Shown: piece after piece, positions 45,601 through 47,720 of the stretch
Layout: every line of letters begins with the position of its first letter
Position numbering within the stretch: position 1 is the first letter of the stretch
Source: an uncultured Acidobacteriota bacterium
GTDB taxonomy: Bacteria; Acidobacteriota; Thermoanaerobaculia; Multivoradales; UBA5704
DNA length: 64,000 nucleotides
NCBI GenBank assembly: GCA_963732005.1
Contig: CAVSXT010000005.1
Location: 2,638,631 to 2,702,630, forward strand
Direction: 5' to 3'
Made by a program: the position numbers and the translations under genes
Notes under the pieces: generated by a model
What the model was told of the DNA's origin: nothing
Database searches by the model: none
What the model saw: the letters and a program-made list of their open reading frames with translations, nothing else

Positions 45601-47720
45601 TCGCCGTCGCCGTCGCCATCGCCAATACCGTCGGCGATCGCCGCCACCGCCCCGGGAACCCGGCGCGCCTGGTGCTCGAACAGCTGGTGCAGACATGGCT
45701 CTTCGGGACCAAACGCCAGGCCCGAGCGGGCGCCAACCGCCGCTGCGGGCCGAAAAGTGCCGGCGGTGTCATTCCATTCCAGCAGCTGCTGCCGTTCGGA
45801 GTCGCCGAGCAGCGGCAGCTCGCGGATGCTCCGCGCCGGGTCCGCGGCGGCGGCGGCGGCGAGGGTGCGCAGCTGGGCGAGCATGCGCCCGGCGGTGACG
45901 CCGTCGAACAGGTCGCTGCTGAACTGCAGCGAGGCGGTCAGCGTGCCCTCGATCTCGGCGGCGAGCAGAGTCAGGTCCACCTGTGCGCCGCGCCGGGTCA
46001 GCGGCTCCGGCTCCACCGCCAGGCCGCCCAGCTCCACCCTCGACCCGGCCACGCCCAGCGCCATGGCTCCGATGGCTCCGATGGCCCCGATGGCTCCGAT
46101 AGCCCCGATGGCTCCGATGCCACCCGGTGAGCCCGGGCTGGTGCCGGGTCCGCGACCAGCCGCCAGGGGCCGCTCGCGGTAGAGCACCAGCATCGCCTGG
46201 AAGACCGGCGGGCGGCTGGGGTCGCGTTCGCCGCCCAGCCGCTCCGCGAGCAGCGGAAAGGGGTAGTCCTGGTGGGCAAAGGCGCCGAGGGCGGTCTCCC
46301 GCACCCGGTCGAGCAGCGTCGCGAAGGAGGGGCTCCCCGCCAGGTTGCCGCGCATCACCACCGGGTTCACGCAGTAGCCGACCAGGCCGGCCAGCTCGAG
46401 CGAGCTCCGCCCGGAGGTGGGGGTGCCCACCCGCACCTCCTCCTGGCCGCTGTAGCGGTGCAGCAGCACCTGGAAGGCGGCCAGCAGCGTCATGAACGGA
46501 GTCGCCCCGGCCTGCCGGCCCAGGGCATGCAGCGCCGCGGTCAGCGCGCGGCCCAGCCCCAGCGTCCGCACGCCGCCGCGGAGGCTCGGCACTGCCGGCC
46601 GCGGCCGGTCGGTCGGCAGCTCGAGGGGTGGCGCTCCCGGCGGCAGCGCGGCGCGCCAGTAGGCTTCGAGTCGCTCGCCTTCCGGTCCCGCCAGCCGCTC
46701 GGCCTGGCGGCGCACGAAATCGCCATAGGAGACCGCGAGCGGCGGCAGCGAGCGGTCGCCGTAGAGCGCTCCCAGCTCAGCCAGGAGCACCTCCGCCGAC
46801 CAGAAGTCCACCACGATGTGGTGCACCGCCATCATCAGGAGGTGCTCCACCCGAGCGTCGGCGCCCTGTCCCTGGCCGCGTTCGCGCCGCCGCCGACACC
46901 GCCAGAGCCCGATGCGCAGCAAAGGGCCGCCGGCGAGGTCGAAGGGCCGGTATGCCTCATCGCTCAGCCGCTCCGCGAGCCGCGCTTCGCTCCAGGTCGT
47001 GGCGTCCTCGAAGGTGAAGGCGAAGCGGGCTTCCGCCTGCACCGACTGCACTGCCTCCGCGCCGCCGGCATCGAAGGTGGTGCGCAGGGCGGGATGGCGC
47101 GCCACCAGGGCCGCCAGCGCCCGCTTCAGGCGGCGCCGGTCGAGCCGGCCGCGGACGCGCCCCGCGCCAGCGATGATGTAGGCCGGGTTGCCTGGCGCCA
47201 TCTGCTCGAGGAGCCAGAGGGCGCGCTGCCCGGGAGACAGCGGCCCGCGCCCGCGGCCCGCCCCGGCGGCGGCGGCGGCGGCCGCCGCCGCCGGTATCGG
47301 CGGGGGTGCCGCCACCGGCGGGGGTGCCAGGGGTCGGCGCTCGACCTCCGCGGCCAGCTCCGCCAGGCTGATCCCTTCGAGCAGCGTGGCCAGGGACACC
47401 TGCACGCCCAGCTCCGACTCGAGCGCGGCGGCCAACTCTGCCGCGCTCAGCGAATCGAGTCCGAGCGAGACCAGCGAGCGCTCCGGCAGCAGCCGCGCAC
47501 CGTCGAGCTCGAGGATTCGCGCCACCAGGCCGCGGAGAGCGCCGGCGGTGTTAGCGGGATTGGCGGGATTGGCGGGATTGGCGGGATTGGCTGGATTGGC
47601 GGGATTGGCGGGATTGGCGGTGTTGGCGGTATCGGCGGCATGGGCGGCATCGGCGGCTTCGGCTGCGGGGCTGGCCGGCGGTGCGGAGCTGCTGTCTGTC
47701 GGGGGTGCCTGATCGATCAC
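24657..47720 (-). CDS. non-ribosomal peptide synthetase, 7687 aa: T0(ACP-type)-[C-A-T]x6-ST-TE
   Basis: Six C-domain His motifs: [54 protein letters not shown]. Six A domains with SGSTGxPKG and NxYGPTE. Six PCPs with GGHSL/GGNSL. N-terminal LGLDSLS carrier. C-terminal sulfotransferase and GSSMGG thioesterase. No E domains. GTG start. Confidence 0.95.
   Translation of the reverse strand: [7687 protein letters not shown]
24770..25540 (-). other. NRPS C-terminal thioesterase (alpha/beta-hydrolase) domain (approximate)
   Basis: [11 protein letters not shown] nucleophile elbow. C-terminal ...[11 protein letters not shown]. Confidence 0.7.
25655..26450 (-). other. CurM/Ols-like PAPS-dependent sulfotransferase (ST) domain inside the NRPS (approximate)
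   Basis: [59 protein letters not shown]. These match the core motifs of the curacin CurM ST domain as I recall them. Confidence 0.8.
47316..47545 (-). other. N-terminal ACP-type carrier domain (LGLDSLS) preceding the first C domain (approximate)
   Basis: GxDSL motif at residues ~87-92, followed by the C-domain N-terminus [13 protein letters not shown]. Confidence 0.7.
47553..47632. repeat. 9-bp in-frame tandem repeat (gggattggc)x8 encoding (ANP)n at the NRPS N-terminus (approximate)
   Basis: Seen directly. Protein reads [28 protein letters not shown]. Confidence 0.7.

Follow-up and report, generated by a model that had tools for sequence, protein, structure and literature searches.

An uncultured soil acidobacterium encodes a giant non-ribosomal peptide synthetase (NRPS) that opens with a fatty-acid-type carrier domain, T0. 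It is probable that T0 is a functional ACP-type carrier, forming with the first condensation domain, C1, the initiation unit of this six-module enzyme; with comparable, moderate confidence, we favor an acyl-ACP-dependent N-acylating start whose loader acts in trans, is unlinked and is probably of the FAAL type. The NRPS gene is the sole long ORF of its region of the window (the whole 64,000-nucleotide stretch that was analyzed; Table 1). From N- to C-terminus it specifies a disordered tail, T0, C1, then six C-A-T modules, the last of them closing in T-sulfotransferase-thioesterase.

Table 1. Coordinates of features in the window.
Feature	Position	Strand	Basis
NRPS gene, 7687 aa: T0-C1-A1-T1-(C-A-T)x5-sulfotransferase-thioesterase	24657..47720	-	ORF list, motif positions, Pfam on ten pieces
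GTG start codon of NRPS	47718..47720	-	first start past in-frame stop; position conserved in orthologues
ANT-(ANP)7-ANT low-complexity array, aa 32-58, 9-bp tandem repeat, in disordered tail (aa 1-54)	47547..47627	-	TRF
T0, carrier domain of ACP type, aa 61-125 (helices predicted over aa 55-128)	47346..47540	-	PF00550, PDB matches, model
Ser90 codon in LGLDSL, predicted phosphopantetheine attachment site	47451..47453	-	direct sequence reading
C1 condensation domain, aa 160-600, including the HHIVVD motif (aa 300-305) and an (IGA)6 insertion (aa 534-553)	45921..47243	-	PF00668
Class I SAM methyltransferase, divergently transcribed	48016..48825	+	Pfam Methyltransf_11/25; sole NRPS neighbor conserved in all orthologous loci
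FkbH-like gene, frameshifted by 1-nt insertion near 54356	53438..54560	+	TIGR01686
Rest of cassette: 3-hydroxyacyl-CoA dehydrogenase (to 55506), 82-aa ACP (55528-55776), acyl-CoA dehydrogenase (55782-56945)	54460..56945	+	Pfam, NCBIfam

That the carrier is the true N-terminus of the protein, directly preceding C1, was proposed in an initial annotation and is borne out; C1 is catalytically intact. Six codons before the GTG there is an in-frame stop. The first starts to follow in this frame (GTG at codon 66, TTG at codon 96) fall within T0, and further ones (GTG 136, ATG 174) lie past it. The N-terminus V/M-I-D-Q/K-A-P-P is common to six orthologues (P0001, L005, L006, L071-L073) at an identical start position, and the GTG and the bases just 5' of it are also kept among them. 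The Pfam condensation match begins at residue 160 (E 2.9e-77) and includes the HHIVVD motif. The top PDB matches of C1 are elongation-type C domains, with starter C domains far lower; C1 is nearer to ordinary elongation domains than to the C domain of PvdL or to starter C domains, a point against the favored reading.

T0 is of the ACP rather than the PCP type, as had also been claimed. It scores 52 bits against PF00550 (E 7.5e-14; cut-off 20.8), its LGLDSL motif occupies residues 86-91, and alignment A1 shows no variation at G87, D89, S90 or L91. By itself T0 matches the MbtD/NbtC PKS ACP models of NCBIfam, and T0-C1 maps to the T-C segment behind the N-terminal acyl ligase of PvdL-like PRK05691 (positions 598-1023, E 2.7e-83). 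In phmmer searches the PDB matches of T0 are exclusively FAS/PKS ACPs, while those of T1 are NRPS PCPs (1e-28 to 1e-14). Scores of T0 against T1-T6 are 52-82, as compared with 76-268 for T1-T6 against one another (124-268 among T1, T2, T3, T5 and T6, except for 100 between T3 and T6). The AlphaFold model of T0 is a four-helix carrier (pLDDT about 80-87) flanked by disordered residues 1-54 and 132-156. Among orthologues T0 is 82-86% identical, free of indels and invariant in GxDSL, whereas the N-terminal tail is 37-42% identical, implying that T0 is under functional constraint.

The same tail had been described as carrying a low-complexity (ANP)8 arm encoded by a perfect 9-bp array, and this description does not hold. 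The repeat reads ANT-(ANP)7-ANT, one ANP unit has CCA for CCC, and TRF finds 90% matches (47554-47656; period 9, 11.4 copies, score 143). The array is far above chance expectation, but it lies in residues modeled at pLDDT <50, is one of at least five short microsatellite-like in-frame arrays in the NRPS ORF (the others being (IGA)6, (GD)7, (DGA)n and (PVG)n), and is missing from all six orthologues compared (83-94% identical); it is therefore not a functional arm, nor does it belong to the structure of the initiation module. It is a lineage-specific repeat expansion, probably neutral and due to strand slippage in the disordered leftover of a linker ahead of the ACP. The IGA loop of C1 is also disordered and lineage-specific.

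A census of loci encoding C1 homologues sorts them into three layouts. All 13 carrier-first loci are acidobacterial and have GLDSL; 21 FAAL-ACP-C loci mostly have GxDSL; the other 14 have different domains upstream of the carrier, which is a GGHSL PCP in 11. The nearest relatives beyond the carrier-first clade are the 21 FAAL-ACP-C-A synthetases and PKS ACP-C junctions. For the former, tblastn confirmed the FAAL fusion, as did the ends of proteins (...SGKIQRRACR, for example). There are PKS KR/AT-ACP-C-A relatives as well. Stand-alone C relatives (43% identity) follow FAAL and ACP-KS...ACP PKS genes. FAALs are established as stand-alone proteins, didomains or N-terminal NRPS domains (PMC11837247).

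The NRPS has no loading domain in cis; the starter must therefore arrive in trans, as originally suggested. No FAAL was found in the window, in the 10 kb upstream of any of five further carrier-first genes, or in the 10 kb that follow L078, an orthologue; downstream of L079 there is only a separate, self-loading FAAL-ACP-KS... gene. Against the favored reading, no FAAL or acyl-ACP synthetase candidate emerged for this genome, and two inspected "stand-alone" FAAL matches from Thermoanaerobaculia ended at contig ends. The only carrier-loading enzyme type seen in the window is FkbH, with whose cassette the start had been said to fit, but this cassette is a weak candidate for supplying T0. It is a complete FkbH/K/J/I-type unit with its own discrete ACP, and the FkbH gene (E 2.4e-75 to TIGR01686, covering positions 3-290 of the 323 in the model) has its last ~70 codons out of frame, the C-terminus resuming in another frame; alignment with the intact 365-aa gene of L071-73 shows a 1-nt gap. 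Nor is the cassette syntenic with orthologous NRPSs: in L005 and L006 (81-94% nucleotide identity) similarity to the window ends exactly at the methyltransferase stop codon, and the cassette is absent from the 3.4 and 8.8 kb beyond. In the L006 genome it lies on a different contig, surrounded by methionine-salvage-like genes, and in two further genomes no NRPS/PKS was found within 10 kb of it. In all, three sampled acidobacterial genomes have the four-gene unit (L070, L074, L075) apart from any NRPS/PKS. The FkbH genes are thus probably independent of T0. What is conserved together is only the NRPS and its divergent methyltransferase (92% amino acid identity in L005 and L006; also present in L071-73), and this pair does not include a gene for the loader.

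Because the nearest relatives outside the clade are FAAL-ACP-C-A proteins, a fatty acyl-AMP ligase or an enzyme of the acyl-ACP synthetase type, encoded at an unlinked site, is the most likely loader, and a fatty or other carboxylic acid the most likely starter. We infer that Ser90 would receive the phosphopantetheine arm, that the enzyme acting in trans would place an acyl group on it, and that C1 would move this group to the amino group of the T1-bound residue (the A1 specificity code is Ser-like), so that every product would be N-acylated at its start. Identity to the FAAL-fused relatives is no higher than 38-48% in C1, which leaves room for a change of donor chemistry within the carrier-first clade. 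Carrier-first initiation with loading in trans is an already known route to lipopeptides.

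The NRPS is a single ORF whose 5' end encodes a carrier, T0, ahead of the first condensation domain, C1. Pfam analysis (in ten consecutive pieces) finds a PP-binding domain at aa 61-125 (E 7.5e-14), a Condensation domain from aa 160 (E 2.9e-77) and an A-T pair, followed by five more C-A-T modules, the last T being succeeded by Sulfotransfer_3 and Thioesterase domains. Sequence motifs agree with this order: LGLDSL at aa 86, six HHxxxD, six A3/A10 pairs, five LGGHSL and one LGGNSL. Six codons after an in-frame stop comes the GTG at 47720, with no other start codon between the two; the next in-frame starts lie inside T0. 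The closest relatives are in MAGs of Thermoanaerobaculia/Acidobacteriota. The same N-terminal residues, (M/V)ID(Q/K)APP, are found in all six orthologues (the protein P0001, 83% identical to the window NRPS; loci L005 and L006, mostly 88-94% identical in nucleotide sequence, with the start region of L005 at 81%; and loci L071-73, 91-94% identical), and a DNA alignment of five sequences shows no change in the GTG or in the bases preceding it. A start codon downstream of T0, which the initial annotation had named as one way in which its reading might fail, is ruled out because the start is conserved in these six orthologues; the NRPS truly begins with a carrier. A 295-bp spacer, lower in G+C (the window as a whole is 71.6% G+C), separates it from a divergent methyltransferase gene, so that there is no same-strand upstream gene able to supply a loading domain. 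(A promoter scan of this divergent intergenic region detected none.)

Table. Features of the window discussed in the text (coordinates are window positions; aa, residues of the NRPS)
Feature	Position	aa	Strand	Remark
Relaxase/TraI-like helicase	2214-4775			mobile-element region downstream of NRPS
Primase-like AAA_25 protein	5969-8128			mobile-element region downstream of NRPS
RadC	11311-11994			mobile-element region downstream of NRPS
Integrase	12461-13492			mobile-element region downstream of NRPS
DDE transposase	20786-22414			mobile-element region downstream of NRPS
NRPS	24657-47720	1-7687	-	single ORF, 7687 aa; T0 at 5' end
T6 (LGGNSL)-Sulfotransfer_3-Thioesterase	24657-26930	~6930-7687	-	NRPS C-terminus
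(PVG)n array	34134-34173	4516-4529	-	in-frame tandem repeat in NRPS
(DGA)n array	42118-42176	1849-1868	-	in-frame tandem repeat in NRPS
(GD)7 array	45572-45624	699-717	-	in-frame tandem repeat in NRPS
(IGA)6 array	46063-46119	534-553	-	inside C1; disordered loop, missing in all other aligned homologues including orthologue P0001
Methyltransferase	48016-48825		+	divergent neighbour of NRPS
Insertion relative to L071, 2.3 kb	48828-51117			Peptidase_S74 (endosialidase chaperone)-domain protein at 49691-51082
FkbH	53438-54560		+	TIGR01686, 253.7 bits
3-Hydroxyacyl-CoA dehydrogenase	within 53438-56945		+	cassette gene
Discrete 82-aa ACP	55528-55776		+	the cassette's own carrier
Acyl-CoA dehydrogenase	within 53438-56945		+	cassette gene
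Insertion relative to L071	59625-60269			SnoaL-like gene at 59677-60261

That the N-terminal segment is a carrier and not a docking domain is clear from its match to PF00550 (52.2 bits, above the cut-off of 20.8), from the invariance of G87, D89, S90 and L91 (motif LGLDSL, aa 86-91) in 14 aligned sequences, and from an AlphaFold model (built on a 14-sequence alignment; mean pLDDT 76.8) that predicts a four-helix carrier (helices 55-70, 90-104, 110-114 and 119-128; pLDDT about 80-87). The tail preceding it is disordered and variable, and a docking domain in place of the carrier is ruled out. Four independent tests agree in predicting a carrier of the ACP type, the PKS-ACP-like rather than PCP character that had been ascribed to it at the outset. 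Among NCBIfam models, T0-C1 aligns to positions 598-1023 of the PvdL-like PRK05691, which is the T-C segment following the N-terminal acyl ligase; T0 on its own matches the ACPs at the C-termini of the PKSs MbtD and NbtC. In a PDB search T0 matches only FAS/PKS-type ACPs (E about 1e-4); T1, serving as control, matches NRPS PCPs (1e-28 to 1e-14). Pairwise scores within the protein are 52-82 for T0 against T1-T6 and 76-268 for T1-T6 among themselves, the lowest pair being T4-T6. Finally, in a census of loci encoding C1 homologues all 13 carrier-first loci have xGLDSL and 21 FAAL-ACP-C loci have mostly GxDSL carriers; GGHSL is found in 11 of the 14 loci with other domains 5' of the carrier. For the most part the carrier motif follows the type of donor, GxDSL going with FAAL donors and GGHSL with peptidyl donors.

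C1 has an intact active-site motif (HHIVVD, aa 300). Its PDB matches are elongation-type C domains (Txo2, 4.7e-67; TycC, 5.6e-63; also Txo1), and its matches to characterised starter C domains are much weaker (CDA, 3e-13; RzmA, 1e-7); with a carrier preceding it and elongation C domains matching it far better, C1 is not of the starter type. Together with its carrier it is homologous to the ACP-C segment of the 21 FAAL-fused loci (38-48% identity over C1, with the carrier aligned). These relatives, in which the FAAL that is missing here is fused, and a tail that resembles a decaying linker might suggest that T0 is the vestige of a lost FAAL-ACP head and that C1 takes acyl-CoA directly, as a starter C domain does. 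This is highly improbable, not only on account of the distance of C1 from characterised starter domains: among orthologues T0 is as conserved as a working domain should be (82-86% identity, no indels, DSL invariant in the 13 carrier-first loci), compared with 37-42% identity, with indels, for the tail and 88-95% for C1.

The elongation-type appearance of C1 would also suit a different arrangement, in which A1 loads Ser on T0 as well as on T1 and C1 joins the two Ser residues, yielding a heptapeptide from six A domains with no external loader. One A domain serves more than one carrier in HMWP2 and in fungal siderophore synthetases, and no loader is linked to any carrier-first orthologue. On the other hand, T0 is ACP-like, unlike the six GG(H/N)SL PCPs that are served by A domains in the same protein, and its nearest relatives come after FAAL or PKS domains; very little probability attaches to double loading by A1. 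Some of the T0-C1 relatives are in fact PKS hybrids of the KR-ACP-C-A and AT...ACP-C-A kinds (P0029, P0014, P0017), and abundant stand-alone C homologues of 549 aa come after PKS ACPs, adjoining, directly 3' of, a FAAL and an ACP-KS-AT-DH-KR-ACP PKS. This, and the match of PKS ACP models to T0, could mean that a split PKS or FAAL-PKS module lies elsewhere in the genome, with T0 as its detached ACP, and that T0 receives a polyketide chain, not a simple fatty acid. Such an origin is very unlikely, since neither the 64-kb window nor the surroundings of five other carrier-first genes contain a KS, AT or KR gene and since the variable, disordered N-terminal tail has no predicted docking helix.

What loads T0 is probably not encoded nearby. 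No FAAL is fused 5' of it, only 60 aa separating the ORF start from the carrier, and four FAAL probes detect none in the window by tblastn; among the main flanking ORFs Pfam finds no stand-alone A domain, AT or KS. Nor is there a loader in the 10-kb upstream regions of five other carrier-first genes, and no linked FAAL, A domain, AT or FkbH is found upstream of the homologous loci L001-L004, L006, L008, L010, L011 and L021, nor downstream of L078 and L079. (The neighbour at L079 is an adjacent, self-contained and self-loading FAAL-ACP-KS-AT-ACP-aminotransferase-C-A gene.) With no loader in the window or at the relatives, the conserved unit is therefore NRPS plus methyltransferase, and the loader acts from elsewhere; the initial annotation was right in requiring a unit supplied in trans. 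One genome, MAG MFD00964.bin.1.74, contains three carrier-first (ACP-C-A...) NRPS genes, L006, L011 and L021. None of the three has a loading enzyme in the 10 kb upstream of it, which points to one loader that serves them all from an unlinked site. Documented forms of FAAL are the stand-alone enzyme, the didomain protein and the N-terminal part of an NRPS (PMC11837247), and the nearest relatives outside the clade are FAAL-fused. A FAAL-type loader, with a fatty or other carboxylic acid as starter, would thus be the most economical candidate for T0; to judge from the relatives, the group that T0 carries would be a fatty acid. A homologue search for a stand-alone FAAL returned none from the genome of L006 among the best 120 matches, and the two Thermoanaerobaculia FAALs that were inspected are both cut by contig ends. 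The methyltransferase was considered as a BioC-like clue to a malonyl starter and dropped, because it is the generic Rossmann core alone that matches (71 bits for BioC against a cut-off of 185; the PDB matches are assorted methyltransferases).

The starter supply had instead been thought to fit the FkbH cassette, whose genes for FkbH, a 3-hydroxyacyl-CoA dehydrogenase, a discrete ACP and an acyl-CoA dehydrogenase are separated from the NRPS start by 5.7 kb in the window and by 3.5 kb in L071-73. In this scheme FkbH loads a glycerate-derived C3 unit (glyceryl, or 2-hydroxymalonyl once oxidised) that reaches T0 and is taken by C1 as starter. Thermoanaerobaculia contain both the cassette and the carrier-first clade, and glycerate starters primed by FkbH ahead of a C domain are known from cystomanamide, vioprolide and the aeruginosin synthetase AerB (PMC8949500, PMC10143770). 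Just upstream of two carrier-first relatives there are genes that bear on glycerate metabolism, a DUF4147/MOFRL (glycerate kinase-like) gene at 2096-3376 of L003 and a Metalloenzyme/PhosphMutase (phosphoglycerate mutase-like) gene at 2200-3450 of L004; they may be there by chance, or they may point to a glycerate-derived starter in some members of the clade. However, the cassette is the gene set of hydroxymalonyl-ACP formation, self-contained and complete with its own carrier; T0 is no nearer to that ACP (score 58) than to PCPs, and there is no acyltransferase that could pass a unit on to T0 from the free ACP. A FkbH-supplied starter is accordingly unlikely, and the genomic context described below also speaks against it.

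The cassette has the same gene order in the window, in L071-75 and in L070 (L070, L074 and L075 being cassette loci in other genomes), but it is found adjacent to the NRPS only in the lineage of the window (the window and L071-73), in which the other flank of the NRPS consists of mobile-element genes. In L005 and L006 (81-94% nucleotide identity) similarity spans the NRPS and the methyltransferase and ends at the methyltransferase stop codon (window 48826). Beyond it the flanks are unrelated to the window (a VTT/rhodanese protein, a sortilin/BNR protein and an L,D-transpeptidase) and hold no cassette genes; tblastn of the cassette-side proteins against loci L001-L069 matches the methyltransferase alone, in L005 and L006. 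The genome of L006 does have a cassette (FkbH 77% identical), on a different contig, where Aldolase_II, ARD and HAD hydrolase genes join it in an operon-like array, so that FkbH is not co-inherited with the carrier-C unit. The setting in L075 is like that in the L006 genome, which makes two occurrences of a methionine-salvage-like array (Aldolase_II/MtnB-like, ARD, HAD hydrolase); in L074 a Meth_synt_2 gene follows the cassette, the single such case. No NRPS or PKS lies within 10 kb of the cassette in the three sampled genomes of L070, L074 and L075, and one more distant FkbH homologue (64% identical, from a 9.3-Mb genome) lies within an NRPS/PKS cluster. FkbH homologues in Acidobacteriota show 60-93% identity throughout the best 120 protein clusters listed, a level of conservation that would fit a conserved independent module; in Acidobacteriota the cassette is mostly outside BGCs.

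The FkbH gene of the window has the DxDxT motif (VVWDLDNT) and the MSCRV cysteine. Compared with the intact 365-aa genes of L071-73 it has a 1-nt insertion near 54356 that puts the last ~70 codons out of frame; the C-terminus WLEAAGVRLQAEFKATARNR... resumes in another frame, with its stop at 54558-54560. The frameshift is either a real lesion, making this a pseudogene, or a sequencing or assembly error. Taken together, the separate ACP, the lack of synteny in L005 and L006, the location on another contig in the L006 genome, the frameshift and the missing transferase indicate that the attribution of FkbH to T0 is probably an artefact of proximity. A variant draws on the wide conservation of the cassette in Thermoanaerobaculia, where it is usually an orphan, and on the genome with three carrier-first NRPSs and no loader: the carrier-first NRPSs of the clade would draw a C3 starter (glyceryl or hydroxymalonyl) from this one unlinked cassette, with T0 as acceptor. 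This too is distinctly unlikely.

The repeat in the tail before T0 encodes ANT-(ANP)7-ANT (aa 32-58), not (ANP)8, and the array (TRF: 47554-47656, period 9, 11.4 copies, 90% matches, score 143) is not the perfect 9-bp tandem that had been described, because one unit has CCA in place of CCC. It is missing in all six orthologues (L071-73 have a deletion there, L005 and L006 unrelated sequence). AlphaFold gives pLDDT below 50 for residues 1-54, as it does for residues 132-156 and for the IGA loop (521-545). The ANP "arm", missing in orthologues and set in a disordered and variable tail, is therefore a recent slipped-strand expansion that does not serve for docking and has no part in the mechanism; a functional role is ruled out because the array is missing in orthologues and is one of at least five, the NRPS having at least four other in-frame arrays (Table). 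Loops and linkers of this gene readily undergo slippage in steps of 6 and 9 bp. Of the initial annotation, the ACP-type carrier, the N-terminus and loading in trans survive; the details of the repeat do not, and the FkbH attribution probably does not.

The most unusual features here lie apart from the T0 start; they are the release domains and the orphan FkbH cassette conserved in Acidobacteriota. The C-terminus has both a PAPS motif (PRSGST) and a TE motif (GSSMG), and this ST-TE ending is of the CurM/olefin-synthase release type, except that it follows an NRPS module with a Ser-like A6 code (DVWHVSLVDK). By analogy, ST-TE would O-sulfate the C-terminal Ser and then hydrolyse and decarboxylate or eliminate, leaving a terminal N-vinyl amide (or dehydroalanine). 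Scanning of metagenomes for this ending returned only four close orthologues, and a literature search found no ST-TE after an amino-acid module. Near-identical Ser-like codes occur in four of the six A domains (aa ~862-6930; A1 DVWHMSLVDK, A2 DVWHLSLVEK and A4 DVWHMSLVEK besides A6); A3 and A5 give no clear code. The codes, extracted by alignment to a GrsA segment, are approximate, and position 278 of A4 was corrected by eye.

The DNA downstream of the NRPS, at 2214-22414, is mobile-element territory. Flanks on both sides differ among the orthologous loci; the NRPS and methyltransferase genes thus behave together as a movable island would. The region of the Peptidase_S74 gene contains a 51-bp tandem repeat at 50414-50537, and the window has a second SnoaL-like gene at 13202-13765.

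Among known systems, FAAL/AL-ACP-C-A modules (PvdL of pyoverdine and many cyanobacterial, chloroflexal and acidobacterial FAAL-fused NRPSs) are like T0-C1 in having a GxDSL ACP directly 5' of an HHxxxD C domain that N-acylates the first amino acid. The window NRPS, in contrast, starts with the ACP, and a FAAL is found neither in cis, nor in the window, nor linked in any orthologue; because it has no FAAL, it stands outside the fused FAAL-ACP-C class. Nor is it in the starter-C class, since C1 comes after a carrier and does not resemble a Cs domain. HMWP2, PchE and MbtB are aryl-capped siderophore synthetases (ArCP-Cy-A...) in which a stand-alone adenylating enzyme loads the first carrier in trans, and they share with the window NRPS the carrier-first layout and loading in trans; however, C1 is an HHxxxD condensation and not a cyclisation domain, T0 is ACP-like and not ArCP-like, and there is no aryl acid-activating gene nearby. 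In hydroxymalonyl/methoxymalonyl-ACP cassettes the genes are FkbH-FkbK-FkbJ-FkbI or ZmaN/G/D/E, a content that the window cassette matches, except that the window lacks an FkbG-type O-methyltransferase and a PKS module (KS or AT) to consume the extender unit. FkbH-primed NRPSs resemble the window in placing a non-amino-acid starter on a carrier 5' of C and in having a FkbH homologue in the neighbourhood, but the FkbH of the aeruginosin, vioprolide and cystomanamide systems is a domain fused in cis next to its carrier (PMC8949500, PMC10143770), with no free ACP and no pair of dehydrogenases; the window cassette is separate, self-contained, non-syntenic and frameshifted, and its NRPS is outside the FkbH-primed class. 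In lipoinitiation of the daptomycin/CDA type a separate FAAL activates the fatty acid, an ACP carries it and the first C domain receives it (PMC9113097, PMC11837247). For daptomycin these are the stand-alone FAAL DptE, the free ACP DptF and the first C domain of DptA, whereas the window has its ACP fused to the NRPS, no clustered FAAL and a C1 that is not starter-type. By analogy, the T0-C1 start would work like initiation by FAAL-ACP-C (PvdL and the like) and by the FAAL, ACP and C domain of daptomycin. The carrier-first layout is at most a minor architectural variant of well-known lipoinitiation and would not surprise a specialist. (A search for literature on Thermoanaerobaculia NRPSs found no relevant item.)

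The product of the window NRPS is very probably N-capped with an acyl group that is not readable from the cluster itself. The FkbH cassette should not be assigned to this cluster by proximity: antiSMASH-style borders would merge the two, and the merged cluster would wrongly predict a glycerate or methoxymalonate unit. Were the cassette after all a shared supplier, an FkbH-type pathway would be serving pure NRPSs in trans with no PKS involved. Genome mining that looks for a fused FAAL or a starter C domain will wrongly assign the start of these acidobacterial carrier-first NRPSs, which number at least 13 loci.
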